A stretch of DNA of 5,346 bases from an uncultured Candidatus Saccharimonas sp. (GCA_964593165.1 CAZQGW010000052.1:1-5346), one strand, 5' to 3'. Numbered from the stretch's first letter, positions 1 to 5,346 are shown. The notes: a model not told the origin generated them from the letters alone. A program made the numbers and translations.

Positions 1-64
1 CAACATTTGGAGAGATGGCTGGTTGGCCCTTCGCCCGGCCCTACTCCCACTCAATAATGTGACG

Positions 65-70: not shown

Positions 71-190
71 ATTCATTTTGTTTTCAGTTATATGGATAAC
101 ACGTAATAGTTATGTGAATGTTTTGTGTAACTATCCAGCTCGTTTTACGATGCGCATTTGTCAGCTAACTCGTTTATTTTCAATAGGGCA

Positions 191-568
191 ATGTTTGGAA
201 CTTACACGCTGTGCAACACGCACTCCGTCCTCAATGCGATTCGGAGTATCCTATATGGCAATCGAAGGGGGTGCATAGTGGTATTCAACAGCGGCAAGGC
301 ATATCACGGTTCTGTGGAAGTCAGCAACGGCAAACTGCATGGGCGCACAGGAATGACTGATTATTTCTTCTTTATCTGCCCGAAATGCGAGAACAACCAA
401 GTGTTGCGAATTCTTGAATACGAATTCAGAAATGGTGTGAAAACTGAAAGAAACGAAAAGAAGAAACCCCAGGAATTCTTTACGCTGGCGTTCCATATCT
501 ATTGTCCGAATTGTCAGTTAGAAGATTTCATAAAAATAGACAACAGCCATCAGTCTGGCGCACTGTAA
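191..568 (+). CDS. Hypothetical protein with two CxxC motifs (probable zinc ribbon). The start is uncertain.
   Basis: The frame is open from 158 to 568 and ends with TAA at 566-568. Position 158 is a TTG with no SD sequence. The first ATG is at 191, with a weak AGGG only 2 nt upstream. Another ATG at 353 would give a 71-aa zinc-ribbon-only product. The CPKC and CPNC motifs are about 50 aa apart (FFFICPKCENN ... HIYCPNCQLED) and flank a K/E-rich linker. The antisense ORF at 251-496 looks like a shadow. Confidence 0.5.
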   Translation: MFGTYTLCNTHSVLNAIRSILYGNRRGCIVVFNSGKAYHGSVEVSNGKLHGRTGMTDYFFFICPKCENNQVLRILEYEFRNGVKTERNEKKKPQEFFTLAFHIYCPNCQLEDFIKIDNSHQSGAL

Positions 569-599: not shown

Positions 600-896
600 T
601 CATTTGCGGCCTTTCCATTCGAATGCTGCTGCTGCTGCGAGCTGCATGAGATAAATCAACACCATTACGCCGATTAACCTCTCAAACATTGCCCAGTCTG
701 CATGGACCACCAAGAGAATCAATGCAACAGGGATAGCAGTAACGATACCAGTCAGGAAGCAAGCGATAACGCCAATCACGCCGAAGTAATCATGCACTGT
801 CTCGAAACATGCAGCTAGTACTCCTAACGCCCCAAGCCCAGCCGCAATATAAACGAGTACGGCGCAACCCAATAGAATAACCCTGAGTATTCTCAT
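600..896 (-). CDS. Small integral membrane protein (98 aa, about 3 predicted TM helices)
   Basis: The ORF runs from ATG (894-896) to TGA (600-602). The translation is dominated by three long hydrophobic stretches (ILLGCAVLVYIAAGLGALGVLAA; VIGVIACFLTGIVTAIPVALILLVV; LIGVMVLIYLMQLAAAAA) and has a short basic C-terminus (EWKGRK). The nearest SD sequence (GGAGAG, 912-917) is 15 nt from this ATG but is correctly spaced for a 4-codon mini-ORF that overlaps the start (see findings). Confidence 0.6.
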   Translation of the reverse strand: MRILRVILLGCAVLVYIAAGLGALGVLAACFETVHDYFGVIGVIACFLTGIVTAIPVALILLVVHADWAMFERLIGVMVLIYLMQLAAAAAFEWKGRK

Positions 897-1030: not shown

Positions 1031-1480
1031 CTACGCTGCTGTAGTCTTCCGCTTTCGCGCTGCCAGCGCAGCGTCGATTGCAGCGTCTAACTCGCCACCC
1101 GTCGCAGCCGCTTTGATAAGCTGCAACGTTGTCACTAGTTCCTTCATGTTGGCAACCTGCACGGCGTTTTTGCCTGTGCTCAACTCCAGCTTCATTGCTC
1201 CATACAGCACTTCAAAGTTGATTTTGCCTGCGCTGTCAGTCCAGTACCAGGCTTTGATTCGCTTTGCAGTCTCCTTCGTAATGCGTTCGCCAGTTTCTTT
1301 GTTAACAGTCGTTTTGGGCTGCATCACTTCGTACTCACGCCCTTCGATTTGCGCACTTGCAAGCGCAATCTGCTCGTCAATACGAGCCGCAAGTTTTGCG
1401 CGGCGCTGTGGCACAGTTGCTTTTCCGTACTTGCTTTCCCGCTTGCATACAACAAACTTCAGCTTCTGTAGTGCGTTCAT
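1031..1480 (-). CDS. Hypothetical protein (149 aa): basic N-terminus, central WYW segment, Ala-rich acidic and basic C-terminal helix
   Basis: The ATG at 1478-1480 is preceded on the minus strand by AAGGAG with a 7-nt spacer (aaggagaaacacaATG), which is the best RBS in the window. The stop is TAG at 1031-1033. The translation looks like a real globular protein (KRIKAWYWTDSAGKINFEVLYG ... GGELDAAIDAALAARKRK). I vaguely recall similar proteins from proteobacterial genomic islands but cannot name a family with confidence. The 196-aa antisense ORF at 966-1556 is a shadow. Confidence 0.8.
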   Translation of the reverse strand: MNALQKLKFVVCKRESKYGKATVPQRRAKLAARIDEQIALASAQIEGREYEVMQPKTTVNKETGERITKETAKRIKAWYWTDSAGKINFEVLYGAMKLELSTGKNAVQVANMKELVTTLQLIKAAATGGELDAAIDAALAARKRKTTAA

Positions 1481-1609: not shown

Positions 1610-2167
1610 CTAAATCATTTCAGCAACAGCACGCAATATAGCGGGATTTGGCTGTACCGCTTTAGTAAGTCGCGTCTGCCCTGCCAAAACCTTAACTGCT
1701 TTAGTATTTGCACCGCGCACCAGCAATGTGTTAAGCCATGTTTGCCTTCCTGTTTTAGTTGTTCCTTCTATACCTGCGCGTTTATATATCGCTGTGAATA
1801 CCTGGGATAAGCTTGTTGGGCTAAATGCGTGCTGCTTTTGTGTGAAAAACAACGGCACACCTTTGTGCGTGTGTGCAACACAATTAAGGGTAGTTAACTC
1901 AAACTGTTCAGCAATATATGCTTGTAGTTCCTTCTGTAGTTGCTTCGGCAACACCAAAGTTCTATTTGGCAACTGAACTTCTGTTTTTACCTCTCCATTC
2001 ATATTCAATACATCTGGTATATCTAGTGCAGCTAGTTCACTTCTCCTAATGCCACTCATATGTGTCATTAACAGCAGCATCTTGTTTCTATTACCCCATT
2101 TGCCTTGATTGGAAGTACCATTTATTACTTTATCCAGCTCTATATCTGTTAGTACTTTACTTTTCAT
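1610..2167 (-). CDS. Tyrosine-recombinase-fold protein with only the catalytic domain and a degenerate active site (pseudo-recombinase). It is a paralog of the 3500-4075 product.
   Basis: The ATG at 2165-2167 has GAGGG 4 nt upstream, and the stop is TAG at 1610-1612. The product aligns along its whole length with the 191-aa recombinase (RNKMLLLMTHMSGIRRSELAALDIPDVL vs RNRMLVLATFYAGLRAIEVASLRYCDVL; QLQKELQAYI vs QLQKELAAYI; LFFTQK vs LFYTQK; TKTGRQT vs SHSGRRS; LAGQTRLTKAVQP vs CSGHKSLAAVQRY). Both conserved Arg residues are retained. The segment carrying the beta-hairpin Lys (KAWQTKGYE) is deleted. The first His is replaced by Lys and the second by Gln. There is no Tyr anywhere in the last 50 residues. 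Confidence 0.8.
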   Translation of the reverse strand: MKSKVLTDIELDKVINGTSNQGKWGNRNKMLLLMTHMSGIRRSELAALDIPDVLNMNGEVKTEVQLPNRTLVLPKQLQKELQAYIAEQFELTTLNCVAHTHKGVPLFFTQKQHAFSPTSLSQVFTAIYKRAGIEGTTKTGRQTWLNTLLVRGANTKAVKVLAGQTRLTKAVQPNPAILRAVAEMI

Positions 2168-2259
2168 ATATCCCTCACATTCTGATACTTATAGTTATCA
2201 TCTGTCTATTGTTATGTGTACGCTTTCAGTCACGCTCGTTCATTATGATGTTAATGTCT

Positions 2260-2280
2260 AGGTGCGTTTTAAGTGCACGG
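2260..2280. repeat. Left copy of an imperfect 20-21-nt direct repeat (AGGTGCGTTTTAAGTGCACGG)
   Basis: It matches 2381-2400 (AGGTGCGCTTAAGTTAACGG) at 17 of 21 positions with one 1-nt gap. The matching blocks AGGTGCG, TTAAGT and ACGG are collinear. The two copies start 121 bp apart. Confidence 0.6.
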
Positions 2281-2287
2281 AGCTGTT

Positions 2288-2306
2288 GCCACATTGGTAA
2301 TGTGGC
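2288..2306. other. Perfect stem-loop GCCACATT-ggt-AATGTGGC (8-bp stem, 3-nt loop)
   Basis: The complementarity was read directly from the sequence. The element lies in the 221-bp gap between the HUH-like gene and the pseudo-recombinase gene. Neither strand has an adjacent U-tract, so it is not a canonical intrinsic terminator. Confidence 0.6.
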
Positions 2307-2330
2307 TGCTATGTGACACTTTTGGTTGTG

Positions 2331-2376
2331 CTAGCCCGACTGCTTTATCGAACCTGCGAACAAGGTATCGGGCTGG
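2331..2376. other. Long-loop stem-loop CTAGCCCGA-N28-TCGGGCTGG with an internal ACCT/AGGT helix
   Basis: Seven perfect base pairs form between 2333-2339 and 2368-2374. A G-U pair and a C-G pair extend the stem to 9 bp in RNA. The loop contains tandem CGAAC (2349-2353 and 2357-2361), TATCG twice (2346-2350 and 2366-2370), and a 4-bp inner helix (2352-2355 with 2363-2366). The element starts 13 nt downstream of the stop of the HUH-like gene. Confidence 0.45.
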
Positions 2377-2380
2377 CTAA

Positions 2381-2400
2381 AGGTGCGCTTAAGTTAACGG
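2381..2400. repeat. Right copy of the imperfect direct repeat (AGGTGCGCTTAAGTTAACGG), overlapping the stop codon of the HUH-like gene
   Basis: See 2260-2280. This copy covers the last codons (S-P-L-T) and the TAA stop (2389-2391) of the 2389-2898 CDS. Confidence 0.6.
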
Positions 2401-2898
2401 CGAAATGTACATGTGTTGAAACATGATGTTCTCGTCAGTACTGCCGCTCAATTTTCTAGTAATGTAGTTCATCCAGGCTCCACCACATTTCGCTTGTCCA
2501 AAATCAACAGCAAGGCTGGGTTTTCCGTCCGTGCTTTTATTCACATGTGAGTAGTACTGAATACCATCTGTGTGCTTGGCAACATCCTCAAACCGGTTCT
2601 TAATCTCCGTATCGGTAAGTGTTGCAGGAAAGCCATAGAACGCAAAGTGTATGTGTAGGCTGTCAATATCACGTTCATTATGAACTATTGGTACTACGCT
2701 TAATGGCTCGCAACCCTTTCCGTACTTCCACGTGTTTTTGCCCCATATCTGTCCGTTAAACTTAAACAAGAAACGCCTTGTTAACTGTTCAACTGCTTCT
2801 GGCGCGCGGTGTGTCCACCTTGTGTTAATTGTTGCCTCGTGTGTTACTGGCAACTTGAATAGCCAGTCTCGCAGTAGTGTTTGTTGTTTACTCTTCAT
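2389..2898 (-). CDS. Compact HUH-motif protein (169 aa), a candidate single-domain Rep, relaxase or Y1-type ssDNA nuclease
   Basis: The ORF runs from ATG at 2896-2898 to TAA at 2389-2391, with GGGAGA 12 nt upstream of the ATG. The motif order matches HUH endonucleases. The motif-I-like strand is HEATINTRW. This is followed by the spacer RRFLFKFNGQIWGKN ... LSVVPIVHNE. Motif II is SLHIHFAFYG (His-Ile-His, codons at 2647-2655). About 60 residues later comes the motif-III-like GAWMNYITRKL (Tyr codon at 2464-2466, Lys four residues on). The size is similar to IS200/IS605 TnpA and RAYT enzymes. The layout also recalls the HYH ... YLAK arrangement of inovirus-Gp2/YfjJ-like island proteins, from memory. 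The functional call rests on motifs only. Confidence 0.55.
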   Translation of the reverse strand: MKSKQQTLLRDWLFKLPVTHEATINTRWTHRAPEAVEQLTRRFLFKFNGQIWGKNTWKYGKGCEPLSVVPIVHNERDIDSLHIHFAFYGFPATLTDTEIKNRFEDVAKHTDGIQYYSHVNKSTDGKPSLAVDFGQAKCGGAWMNYITRKLSGSTDENIMFQHMYISPLT

Positions 2899-2943
2899 TG
2901 TGTTTTTCTATCTCCCTTGCTTAGATCCGAATGAACTTGCACT

Positions 2944-2955
2944 GTTTAGCTAAAC
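2944..2955. promoter_or_regulatory. Perfect 12-bp palindrome GTTTAGCTAAAC, 46-57 nt upstream of the HUH-like gene start (operator-like)
   Basis: The sequence equals its own reverse complement. The half-site TTTAGC recurs at 3229-3234 and 3296-3301 in the neighbouring control region. Confidence 0.4.
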
Positions 2956-2984
2956 CGTAATGTTATGAAAGGCAGAATTACGCT

Positions 2985-3004
2985 ACGCGCAGTAAACTGC
3001 GCGT
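2985..3004 (-). terminator. GC-rich hairpin ACGCGCAG-taaa-CTGCGCGT immediately after the stop of the small ORF. It may be a weak terminator or attenuator, or a protein-binding palindrome.
   Basis: The stem is a perfect 8 bp (6 G-C pairs) with a 4-nt loop, and it begins 2 nt after the TAA (3007-3009) on the minus strand. No U-run follows it (agcgtaattctgcc), so canonical intrinsic termination is doubtful. Confidence 0.3.
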
Positions 3005-3006
3005 GC

Positions 3007-3219
3007 TTATGTGCCTAATTGTTTGTTGGTGTCCTTTTGCAGCTTTTGCTTTAACTCTTCATTACTTTTATTCGCGTTTGCAAGCTGCTCCTGCGCTTTG
3101 CGCACCCGCTGTGCGGCATTCTGCTGCTTTGCAGTGCTGCTAAGCAGCCTGGAGCTATTTAGAAGCTTTTGTGCTTGGGCTTTTAACGGGTTTTTGGGTA
3201 CTATTTGGCTTGCACGCAT
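3007..3219 (-). CDS. Small basic Q/K/A-rich protein (70 aa) with predicted coiled-coil character, possibly translated from a leaderless mRNA
   Basis: The ORF runs from ATG at 3217-3219 to TAA at 3007-3009. It has no SD sequence (aaatatatttatATG). The translation is low in complexity but protein-like (AQAQKLL ... QRVRKAQEQLANANKSNEELKQKLQK). The opposite strand is also open over the same span but translates to Cys/Phe-rich nonsense. The coding status is uncertain. Confidence 0.4.
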   Translation of the reverse strand: MRASQIVPKNPLKAQAQKLLNSSRLLSSTAKQQNAAQRVRKAQEQLANANKSNEELKQKLQKDTNKQLGT

Positions 3220-3226
3220 ATAAATA

Positions 3227-3254
3227 TATTTAGCTTAGAAAGTTAGATTTACAA
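3227..3254 (-). promoter_or_regulatory. Candidate sigma70-type promoter placed to start transcription at or next to the ATG of the small ORF (leaderless arrangement)
   Basis: On the minus strand, TTGTAA lies at 3254-3249 and TAAATA at 3232-3227, separated by a 16-nt spacer. Seven nucleotides then separate the -10 box from the A of the ATG at 3219. This geometry is consistent with the absence of an SD sequence. It is a by-eye match only. Confidence 0.3.
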
Positions 3255-3280
3255 GTCCTTTGTATATAAGGACATACAAA
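3255..3280. promoter_or_regulatory. Nested inverted repeats GTCCTT-tgtatat-AAGGAC and TTTGTAT-N8-ATACAAA (operator or recombinase-core-like site)
   Basis: GTCCTT (3255-3260) and AAGGAC (3268-3273) are exact complements around a 7-bp spacer. TTTGTAT (3259-3265) and ATACAAA (3274-3280) form an overlapping second pair. CATACAAA recurs at 3471-3478, just upstream of the mini-recombinase RBS. The site abuts the candidate -35 box of the leftward promoter. Confidence 0.35.
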
Positions 3281-3499
3281 CACGTAAATCATTCGTTTAG
3301 CGTAAATACACCCTATCCCAGCCGTGCAACAGCACCAAAATGTTCTATTTTGTCTCTTCTATTATGTTTTAGCCAAACGCATGTATCTTTCTGAATATGC
3401 GTGGGATAGCTGTGTCGAATAAACCGCTTGTATTGGTTGCCATTTTAAATCAAACAGTTGAGCATTAAGTCATACAAAAGGTTCGATTAGGAGTCCGAT

Positions 3500-4075
3500 A
3501 TGCTAAAGCAAGCTAAGACGTTATCTAAAGCGGAAGTAAGACGCGTTCTTGATTATGTTGCAACCCGCCGGCACGCTGCACGAAACAGGATGCTGGTGTT
3601 GGCTACTTTTTACGCTGGGCTGCGTGCAATCGAAGTTGCAAGCTTACGGTACTGCGATGTTCTGGACAGCATAGGCAAAGTAAAAACTGAGATATGGTTG
3701 AAAGCTTGGCAAACAAAAGGCTATGAAGGGCGAATGGTATACGTGAACACACAGCTCCAAAAAGAGCTTGCAGCGTACATACGCGCAGTTCCAAGTGTGG
3801 ATGTGAACGCCAGGTTGTTTTACACGCAGAAACGCGGCGCCGGCGGCTTTTCAGCAAACACGCTGGTGCAGTTTTATCACACACTGTATGGTAAGGTTGG
3901 GCTAGCTGGGGCAAGCTCGCATAGTGGTAGGCGTAGCTTCTGCACAAACCTTGCAGCGAATGGAGTTGGTGTGCGCGTACTAATGGCTTGTTCTGGACAC
4001 AAATCGCTTGCTGCTGTGCAGCGGTATTTGGATGTGAACTGTGATATGGTGCACGCGGCGGTTGAACTGGCGTAG
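3500..4075 (+). CDS. Tyrosine site-specific recombinase with only the catalytic domain (191 aa, FimB/FimE-like architecture) and an intact active site
   Basis: The ATG at 3500 is preceded by TAGGAG (3488-3493) with a 6-nt spacer, and the stop is TAG at 4073-4075. The full catalytic signature is readable: Arg in AGLRAIE, Lys in WQTKG, His-x-x-Arg in SSHSGRRSF, His in SGHKS, and Tyr in AVQRYL. There is no N-terminal core-binding domain. The N-terminal HAARN ... GLRAIEV block resembles what I recall of FimB/FimE-type invertases, which are about 200 aa. Confidence 0.9.
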   Translation: MLKQAKTLSKAEVRRVLDYVATRRHAARNRMLVLATFYAGLRAIEVASLRYCDVLDSIGKVKTEIWLKAWQTKGYEGRMVYVNTQLQKELAAYIRAVPSVDVNARLFYTQKRGAGGFSANTLVQFYHTLYGKVGLAGASSHSGRRSFCTNLAANGVGVRVLMACSGHKSLAAVQRYLDVNCDMVHAAVELA

Positions 4076-4110
4076 TGCTTACGCGATTCTAATTCAGTAT
4101 GCTGCTGATA

Positions 4111-5346
4111 TTAAAGCACTTCAATCGTGCCATCTGCATGTCTTCTAAAATCTGCAGCAGCACTCGTAATCATAATTGCATCGTTTAGGTGATAGTAAGT
4201 ATGCTCAATTTGCGAAACACTTGTGCCGCACATGTCTGCTATTTGCCGAAAGTTTAGTCCGCTCATAACGCGCTGCGTTACCATAAAATGACGCAGGCTG
4301 TATGGGACTAAATCGCGCGTTGCACTGTCTGGGATATGAGCCAGATTCACCATATTGTGGAAGTGGTATAAAAGCGCACGTTCAGTTAATGGCGCCTCTC
4401 CGTCAATGCTAAAAACCAAAGAGCTGTGTGTATCTGGTTTTGTTAATGCGCGTAGCCTTGTAAAATATTCTCCTCCACGGCATAAAAATACTCTGCTCTT
4501 TCTAACCTTACTTGTTTGTGCACGCACGTTTATTCTGGCTAAAATATGTTCTTCTCCGCCAACAGTTCTATTCTCAACAGTTACATCATTCCAGCGTAAT
4601 TGTCGTTGTTCTCCAACGCGTAAGCCGCTATTTGCTGCAACCAATACATAGTAACGGACAATTTCGCGAATCAGCTTTTCATCTTTATCAATTTGATTGA
4701 TACGCAATGAACAGTAGGTGCGCATTGCAGTGACTAGTTGTTTGTATTCATCGTTTGTAAATGTTGCACGTCTTATTGCTTCGTTATTCGAATCAAATTT
4801 TGGCAACCTCGAAAAATCAAAGCTGTCAATCAGCGTCTCGCCATTCCTAAACAAAAACTTCACACATGCATTAATTGTGCTTTGCTCGTTCTGAACAGTA
4901 ACGGGCTTTATGTTTGCATCTTCCTGTGTGCGACTAAAATAATAACTCTCACAATCTGTGCGCTCTAGCTCTTTTAATTTCGCATCTCTCCCAATAAAGT
5001 CTAACCAATGTTGCAAATGCGTATTTATTGTTGAGTATCGTCCACTTACTATTACACCAGTTACCACATCCTGCTTCCTGCGTTCTAAATACTTATCTAC
5101 TCCTTGTTTCGTTGTTAATGAAAAGTATGTCTTGCCATTCAACAAGTTACCGTAAAGTTCAAGATAAGCACTTTTCCCTTTATCAATCGCTGTTGCTTCA
5201 CTTCGAGTATGCAGACTCTTTCTTGCGTATTTGTTTTCTTTTGCAAGCCACATCCTAAAGTGCCAGTATTCACCGCGCTTATAAATAACAGCGTCATCAA
5301 AAATCGCTATTTCGTCTGCTTTAAAGTTCTTCTTCTTTAACGCCAT
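4111..5346 (-). CDS. int: Full-length tyrosine integrase (phage or island type, about 411 aa). Its ATG coincides with the window edge.
   Basis: The ORF runs from ATG at 5344-5346 to TAA at 4111-4113. The upstream region is not visible, so the true start could lie further out. The C-terminal catalytic domain shows Arg in NSGLRVGEQRQLRWNDV, Lys in TSKVRKSRVF, an R-H pair in VPYSLRHFMVT (the usual first His is Tyr here), and the Tyr nucleophile in SQIEHTYYH. The roughly 200 N-terminal residues (GEYWHFRMWLAKENKYARKSLHT ...) look like arm-binding and core-binding domains. Confidence 0.9.
   Translation of the reverse strand: MALKKKNFKADEIAIFDDAVIYKRGEYWHFRMWLAKENKYARKSLHTRSEATAIDKGKSAYLELYGNLLNGKTYFSLTTKQGVDKYLERRKQDVVTGVIVSGRYSTINTHLQHWLDFIGRDAKLKELERTDCESYYFSRTQEDANIKPVTVQNEQSTINACVKFLFRNGETLIDSFDFSRLPKFDSNNEAIRRATFTNDEYKQLVTAMRTYCSLRINQIDKDEKLIREIVRYYVLVAANSGLRVGEQRQLRWNDVTVENRTVGGEEHILARINVRAQTSKVRKSRVFLCRGGEYFTRLRALTKPDTHSSLVFSIDGEAPLTERALLYHFHNMVNLAHIPDSATRDLVPYSLRHFMVTQRVMSGLNFRQIADMCGTSVSQIEHTYYHLNDAIMITSAAADFRRHADGTIEVL

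Follow-up and report, generated by a model that had tools for sequence, protein, structure and literature searches.

The 5,346-nucleotide stretch of DNA analysed here (the window) makes up nearly all of a 5562-bp contig (CAZQGW010000052.1) assigned to an uncultured Candidatus Saccharimonas sp. Between positions 1610 and 4075 it carries four small genes, encoding two short tyrosine recombinases, one of them apparently inactive (mini191 and pseudo185), a small basic protein (small70) and a putative HUH nuclease (u169), with a gene for a DUF6641 protein on one side and that for a full-length integrase (int411) on the other (Table 1). The original prediction described 1610-4075 as a second DNA-rearrangement module added beside the integrase. 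All of its open reading frames (ORFs) and coordinates match, but the stretch is better read as part of the backbone of the island itself: it occupies nearly half of a 5.47-kb island, and integrase, DUF6641 and mini-recombinase form the core that recurs in related islands.

Table 1. Genes and other features of the island; positions refer to the window unless stated otherwise
Feature	Position	Strand	Evidence
attR core CTACTCCCACTCAAT, final guaA codons and stop	41-55	.	15-nt exact direct repeat
Block just inside attR, GTTACACAAAACATTCACATAACTA	104-130	-	Also at 13727-13752 in locus L003, equal distance from attR
Cargo, 136-amino acid (aa) protein, two CxxC zinc-ribbon motifs	158-568	+	Sub-threshold zinc-ribbon Pfam matches only
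Cargo, 98-aa hydrophobic (membrane) protein	600-896	-	ORF; missing from related loci
DUF6641, 149-aa protein	1031-1480	-	PF20346, 36.6 bits (cutoff 27); phrog_31551, 1.8e-23
pseudo185, 185-aa mini-recombinase paralog, predicted catalytically dead	1610-2167	-	Pfam Phage_integrase, 36.6 bits, 4.9e-9
Double hairpin with flanking ACTTAA(A)CGCA-type direct repeats	2255-2392	-	Five-locus alignment; single-stranded DNA fold
u169, 169-aa putative small Rep-class HUH nuclease	2389-2898	-	Invariant motifs; AlphaFold2 model
small70-u169 spacer: GC hairpin following the small70 stop; u169 preceded by a GTTCG-rich block	2899-3006	-	Alignment
small70, basic protein of 70 aa rich in Q/K/A, encoded first in the leftward operon	3007-3219	-	ORF in four loci
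Divergent control region, 280 bp	3220-3499	.	Three-locus alignment
Invariant 20-mer TAATAGAAGAGACAAAATAG	3345-3364	-	Exact in window, L002, L003 and L004
Conserved 16-nt block TCAACTGTTTGATTTA	3446-3461	-	Three-locus alignment
mini191, 191-aa Xer-like tyrosine recombinase	3500-4075	+	Pfam Phage_integrase, complete active site
int411, 411-aa full-length guaA-targeting integrase	4111-5346	-	Pfam and PHROG integrase matches
attL partner repeat	Contig 5508-5522, just beyond window end		Same 15 nt as attR

The island is defined by its ends. The integrase gene lies beside its target gene, and direct repeats of the target's end stand at both borders. The second copy, attL, and the guaA stop codon are found 165 nt past the int411 start codon. 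The final 17 codons of guaA (...GTIEWE*) take up the end of the contig and are read from the integrase strand. By our own estimate, the chance expectation for a 15-nt repeat match is about 8e-4. In the related locus L003, the same repeat, ATTGAGTGGGAGTAG, marks the island ends at 7204 and 13807. As the repeat is present at both ends here and recurs in L003, the sequence between 41-55 and 5508-5522 is a complete 5.47-kb integrative island at the 3' end of guaA. The block just inside attR, shared with L003, is a candidate arm or accessory site for the integrase. Among int411 relatives at 44-49% identity, eight of eight lie directly after guaA.

The cassette is not peculiar to this genome, and here the original prediction stands. 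The genes for small70, u169 and pseudo185 occur in the same order in four metagenome loci (L002-L005), and the two long ones, L003 and L004, add a divergent mini191 and a downstream DUF6641 gene; a recurrence of this kind would not be expected by chance. What surrounds the cassette varies. L003 has the same integrase beside guaA and carries a BglII-like restriction-modification pair as cargo. In L004 an unrelated 447-aa ORF with no Pfam match takes the integrase position, a separate integrase fragment lies at the contig edge, and cargo is lodged between pseudo185 and DUF6641.

A wider family emerges from 80 loci with mini191 relatives, 58 of which have at least 4 kb of upstream sequence and were used for counts. 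Most often, the target gene is followed by integrase (+), DUF6641 (-), HUH gene (+), a structured spacer of about 500 bp, mini-recombinase (+) and cargo. DUF6641 is found in 50 of the 58 loci, within 6.5 kb upstream of the mini-recombinase and always divergent from it, and a HUH gene in 28. This simpler form, comprising integrase, DUF6641, HUH gene and mini-recombinase, is seen in dozens of islands of 6-11 kb, mainly in freshwater Betaproteobacteria, with integrases and cargo that can be swapped. Six loci have borders formed by repeats of 17-49 nt, either at tRNA genes or elsewhere; int411-type integrases are without exception placed after guaA, and others in the family use tRNA genes. The range extends to an alphaproteobacterial replicon, Azospirillum sp. 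B510 pAB510d (420339-435434), which has the integrase, divergent DUF6641 and mini-recombinase, with about 12 kb of cargo separating the core genes, among it a CHAT-domain protein, HEPN gene(s) and two insertion sequence copies. A search for a published description of the family found none. The cassette is no separate module but belongs to the family backbone.

Further clues come from the individual proteins. For u169, the original prediction of a HUH-like protein is borne out by invariant motifs; its predicted fold appears Rep-like. Motif I reads THxATxN, the HUH motif is H82-I-H84 and a candidate nucleophile, Y145, lies in WMNYITRK. Residues H82, H84, G112 and Y145 are invariant among 24 relatives (20-73% identity). 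Most of 37 locus-encoded relatives keep the HUH motif, one subgroup having H-Y-N, and relatives in other islands show LTLTLK as motif I, then HUH, then W-x-x-Y-I-T-K-E (general context W-x-x-Y-I-T-K/R). In replication initiators and Y1 transposases, too, HUH precedes the tyrosine, unlike in classical relaxases. The AlphaFold2 model (predicted local distance difference test score, pLDDT, 89.6; predicted template modelling score 0.86) places the HUH motif on strand 82-88 and the tyrosine on helix 139-147. VIA-align matches the model to SIRV1 Rep (2x3g; Z 7.7), MVM NS1 (7.5), RepB (6.8) and AAV Rep (6.2), with circovirus Rep also among the best fold matches. The only family matched repeatedly by the relatives is REP_ORF2-G2P (PF23343), with weak matches in 8 of 24 (best E 1.1e-4), and a protein-atlas lead agrees with it. 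The family is rare (27 clusters at E <= 0.001 in a set of 1.84 billion representatives); a pattern scan of species-representative genomes, tblastn against plasmids and phages and a search of viral contigs all failed to find relatives. Foldseek with the u169 model gave nothing at E <= 0.001.

Rolling-circle Reps of the HUH class (pMV158 RepB, SIRV1 ORF119, parvovirus NS1 and circovirus Rep) share with u169 the order motif I, HUH, Tyr-x-x-Lys/Arg, and the model likewise has HUH on a central strand and the tyrosine on a helix. The protein differs from them in being only 169 aa long, with no helicase or oligomerisation domain, and in scoring below Pfam thresholds.

The mini191 protein has the active site of a tyrosine recombinase and little else. 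It matches Pfam Phage_integrase (PF00589) with 66.9 bits (cutoff 27.1; E 2.4e-18), and R42, K73, H141-x-x-R144, H167 and Y176 are all present and invariant across 11 family members. Its profile aligns to XerA (4a8e; 6.2e-20) over residues 93-274 only, the catalytic half, and to XerD at 1e-9. There is no N-terminal core-binding domain, and the NCBIfam Xer models match from about position 93-105 onward. Scores against the XerD model (53.1 bits versus 329.6) and the XerC model (50 versus 335) fall well below cutoff, so mini191 is not an XerC/XerD equivalog. Its 3921 homologs are 105-335 aa long, and relatives occupy 508 places in species-representative genomes, mainly in Polynucleobacter, Limnohabitans and other freshwater Burkholderiales; relatives in viral contigs are distant, at most 35% identical. 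A tyrosine-recombinase catalytic domain that lacks arm and core-binding domains and keeps its tyrosine is an architecture that mini191 shares with the MOB_M relaxases. The MOB_M prototypes TcpM, MobK and MpsA are tyrosine-recombinase-like relaxases without DNA-binding domains, and are reported to be dissimilar to one another in sequence (PMC8152469).

By comparison, the active site of pseudo185 is lost. The pseudo-recombinase of the original prediction is borne out: of the R-K-HxxR-H-Y set kept in mini191, all six proteins (pseudo185 and five orthologs at 57-65% identity) have lost the Lys hairpin and the Tyr by deletion, carry K where the first His should be and carry Q or R at the second. 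The orthologs form a single clade (support 100/100) with a stem of 1.76 substitutions per site and short internal branches, a pattern that suggests fast change after loss of catalysis followed by constraint. We take pseudo185 to be a retained, probably non-catalytic protein. Its slot directly after the HUH gene is where the common island form has the active enzyme, whose gene in this branch of the family points the other way and adjoins the integrase. Recombinase-in-trio (RIT) elements, with three adjacent, co-oriented recombinases of full length, offer no parallel, as the island has only one full-length recombinase and its three recombinase genes are separated and lie on both strands.

The small basic ORF was also called correctly. 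It is preserved in four loci at 48-63% identity, stop codons interrupt the opposite-strand ORF in L003 and in L004, and differences at codon positions 1, 2 and 3 number 130, 123 and 170; the comparison argues that small70 is a real minus-strand gene. DUF6641 is modelled by AlphaFold2 with a pLDDT of 82.7, but searches with that model gave nothing informative (best Z 6.0, for helical proteins; Foldseek E > 0.2), and a search of the published literature found no mention of it.

Three non-coding blocks stay conserved between loci that share 48-83% protein identity, making them candidate origin, nick or binding sites. Downstream of u169, the region 2255-2392 shows 76% mean column identity over a 250-nt alignment of five loci, the long invariant runs falling within the first ~130 columns, which cover the hairpins. 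Its predicted single-stranded fold (-22.1 kcal/mol; z = -3.2) was equalled by none of 200 shuffles, and compensatory changes are found at four pairs. The region is therefore a candidate double- or single-strand origin, or nick region, for the HUH protein. It contains TTCGATAA, which resembles the CTTGATA nick motif of pC194-type origins. Upstream of u169, the small70-u169 spacer has 74% mean column identity in four loci, with the stem preserved and the loop variable in length. A perfect palindrome there, GTTTAGCTAAAC at 2944-2955, was set aside, the palindrome not being kept in the other loci. GTTCG-type motifs flank u169, with GTTCATTCGGAT upstream and GTTCGCAGGTTCGATAAAG downstream. The third consists of the 20-mer and the 16-mer in the control region between small70 and mini191, a region that is a candidate site of mini191 action as well as a candidate promoter region.

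Taken together, these results suggest that 1610-4075, DUF6641 and the integrase form a fixed island backbone that works as follows. Int411 would insert the island into guaA at the invariant ATTGAGTGGGAGTAG and also excise it there. The HUH protein would nick the structured site beside its own gene and so start rolling-circle copying of the excised circle. The mini191 protein would act at the conserved sites preceding its gene, and most likely as an enzyme of the MobK/MpsA kind that nicks and joins one specific strand; a conjugative helper could then mobilise the circle. In this scheme pseudo185 may be a non-catalytic DNA-binding or partner subunit and small70 an accessory protein or regulator. 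We hold the scheme as a whole, including rolling-circle copying by the HUH protein and nicking by mini191, to have about an even chance of being right; the part held most confidently is that of an excisable mini-island backbone whose HUH protein probably starts rolling-circle copying. Four considerations favour nicking by mini191: its stripped-down architecture, as in MobK and MpsA; the position of its gene downstream of a long structured region; its retention in islands without a HUH gene; and the presence of a dead partner that would restrict cutting to one strand.

Several observations weigh against this scheme. BLASTP gave no alignment between mini191 and TcpM of pCW3. The u169 protein itself has no Pfam, NCBIfam or PHROG match, and its Rep matches are interleaved with folds of ribosomal protein S6, the highest Z (7.7) being one that the tool rates as common. 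About half of the related islands have no recognisable HUH gene, so that HUH replication cannot be universal in the family. Finally, Legionella plasmids with mini191 relatives (34-39% identical) are typed MOBF, and on the one conjugative plasmid examined, which has its own MOBF relaxase, a 194-aa relative adjoins ParA/ParB genes, a partition-gene neighbourhood that points to resolvase roles.

That last neighbourhood is one argument for the chief rival, in which HUH replication is the same but mini191 would be a classical site-specific resolvase, reducing rolling-circle or recombination multimers of the circle to monomers at a site close to its own gene, and the island would have no mobilisation function of its own. 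Xer recombinases are also the best solved relatives of mini191, whose full catalytic set is retained. Against this, the conserved blocks upstream of mini191 contain no dif-, cer- or lox-like site with inverted arms, a conserved dead paralog suits a one-strand nickase or a regulator better than four-subunit strand exchange, and the mini-recombinase is kept where the HUH gene is absent. We regard the resolvase as a real contender, though clearly less probable than the nickase scheme. Of the functions originally put forward, the best fit is that the excised element is resolved or replicated by rolling circle; inversion and interference are unsupported. For inversion, mini191 would be an invertase of the FimB/FimE type flipping a promoter in 3220-3499 and so phase-switching the leftward operon, from which it is divergent across those 280 bp. 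The size and domain content are those of FimB, and the two proteins are 28% identical over 174 residues. Yet a search of 2100-4200 found no inverted repeats bracketing the control region, and its conserved blocks have a single orientation in the window, L002, L003 and L004. Scores against invertase models are far too low (PRK09870, 38.8 bits versus 221; PRK09871, 16 versus 222), FimB and FimE sit on a long branch of the recombinase tree (4.64 substitutions per site), and in the common island form the mini-recombinase is co-oriented with the HUH gene with no switchable promoter adjoining. We give an invertase hardly any credence.

Two further readings concern the partners of the cassette. As no excisionase-like gene was recognised in the island in Pfam, NCBIfam or PHROG scans, mini191, with DUF6641 or pseudo185, might help Int411 at the att sites, as a second recombinase subunit or a directionality factor; paired tyrosine recombinases are known elsewhere. 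The mini-recombinase, however, retains 53-62% identity where the integrase and att site have switched between guaA and tRNA genes, which makes an att-reading subunit unlikely, since such a subunit should change too, and we consider this reading quite improbable. The cassette might also serve in defence, or interfere with incoming replicons; defence-type cargo is carried by related islands (restriction-modification in L003, CHAT and HEPN in Azospirillum). But PADLOC gave nothing meaningful, with no defence-family match, and the cassette genes are the invariant part of the islands whereas the defence genes are the variable part; there is very little to recommend this idea. Returning to the nickase scheme, its boldest form, in which the islands would constitute an undescribed, widespread family of 5-11 kb that replicates by rolling circle and mobilises itself by means of a catalytic-domain-only recombinase, mini191 and its dead paralog forming a heteromer that cuts one strand, seems to us unlikely, less so than help for Int411 but more so than a resolvase. 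If true, it would mean that pairing with an inactive subunit has made a dedicated nickase out of a strand-exchange enzyme.

Known elements resemble the island in part. The Klebsiella pneumoniae plasmid pIGRK, with MobK and oriT1, also combines a replication initiator, a structured non-coding region and a tyrosine-recombinase-like protein devoid of both DNA-binding domains (PMC8152469, PMC6854812). Its origin of transfer (oriT) lies just upstream of mobK (PMC8152469), and the common island form places HUH gene, structured region of about 500 bp and mini-recombinase in comparable order. The nucleophile is near residue 180 in both proteins (Y179 in MobK, Y176 in mini191), the two being likened by architecture and shared superfamily, not by sequence alignment. 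Unlike the island, pIGRK is a free 2.3-kb plasmid with no integrase, and HUH motifs are absent from its winged-helix protein RepR (PMC6854812).

A second parallel is SGI1, an integrative island with a tyrosine-recombinase-like protein, MpsA, besides its integrase, a small helper, MpsB, and a structured site, oriT (PMC6414798). MpsA, with its nucleophile at Y319, greatly exceeds mini191 in length, MpsB is similar to a core-binding domain, and the island inserts at trmE, carries transfer genes and has neither a HUH gene nor DUF6641. More generally, tyrosine-recombinase-like relaxases are reported to be common near integrases in chromosomes (bioRxiv 10.64898/2026.01.13.699239). GIsul2 shares with the present island a tyrosine integrase that inserts at the 3' end of guaA (PMC9376610). 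At E <= 1e-10, though, the only relative of int411 in the plasmid collection searched was one 28%-identical Rhizobium gene. That collection presumably includes carriers of GIsul2. As for SGI1, its length of about 43 kb sets it further apart. The PICMI satellites of Vibrionaceae are closer in size and plan, at about 5-6 kb with few excision and replication core genes and swappable cargo, and they are reported to differ in integrating next to fis, in activation by AlpA and in packaging by helper phages (PMC10803314). No window protein matched an AlpA-like family. A phage-satellite reading of the present island was considered and is unsupported, viral contigs holding no close relatives.

Small islands without transfer genes bring much defence and niche cargo to streamlined freshwater bacteria, and their movement is mostly unexplained. 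The core described here pairs two DNA-cutting chemistries with DUF6641 and is compact and well bounded, with clear active sites and candidate DNA sites, which makes it a tractable system for asking whether stripped-down recombinases serve as relaxases in chromosomal islands, what DUF6641 does and why a dead copy is kept. It would also improve the annotation of genes now labelled 'integrase/recombinase XerD' or 'hypothetical'.

The zinc-ribbon and small membrane genes at 158-896 are convergent and form the sole cargo of the island. The 98-aa membrane protein has no family match in Pfam, NCBIfam or PHROG. The position of the 136-aa gene is taken in related islands by restriction-modification or TPM/zinc-ribbon genes; in L003 it holds the BglII-like system, and L004 has other cargo there. 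The spacer between HUH gene and mini-recombinase also carries cargo in many loci and so forms a second cargo hotspot; in L082, at about 7030-7870, a 190-aa gene sits inside it just after the first conserved hairpin block. In ten loci the HUH slot is filled by an unrelated protein of 100-140 aa, and the notion that this is a diverged HUH protein was ruled out (hhalign probability 15%). In L008, L009, L010, L013, L014, L017, L045 and L046, the replacement is basic, helical and divergent from DUF6641. Its predicted start, MLNTCM, is similar to the starts of certain HUH genes, so that the two may have a block of upstream DNA in common.

The window contains no tRNA genes and gave no Rfam match at E <= 1, and promoter and terminator scans found signals no more frequent than in shuffles. 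No near-identical DNA was found in E. coli genomes, plasmids or phages. Each contig terminus (1-55 and 5508-5562) is separated from the inner edge of its repeat by exactly 55 nt. The geometry of the contig, rather than reads, points to branching of an assembly graph at k=55, which would imply that occupied and empty guaA sites were present together in the sample; a 95-nt junction query for an empty site in 60 related genomes matched in its guaA half only.

The host of the contig is doubtful. The guaA fragment on the contig agrees with guaA of L003 at 51 of 55 nt and with that of the bin's own genus (L127-L131) at only 42-45, similar to the 43-44 of the best-matching unrelated loci. Because the fragment is nearer to L003, the bin contains no other guaA and a 5.5-kb contig is easily mis-binned, the contig may have been wrongly placed in this 0.9-Mb genome, the relatives of which are 0.5-1.2 Mb in size. 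The att core itself falls within the invariant ...TIEWE* codons of guaA (3' ends of L003, L015, L058, L061, L072, L074, L083 and L127-L131), where the DNA is nearly identical across distant bacteria, and such a target would offer the integrase a very broad host range.

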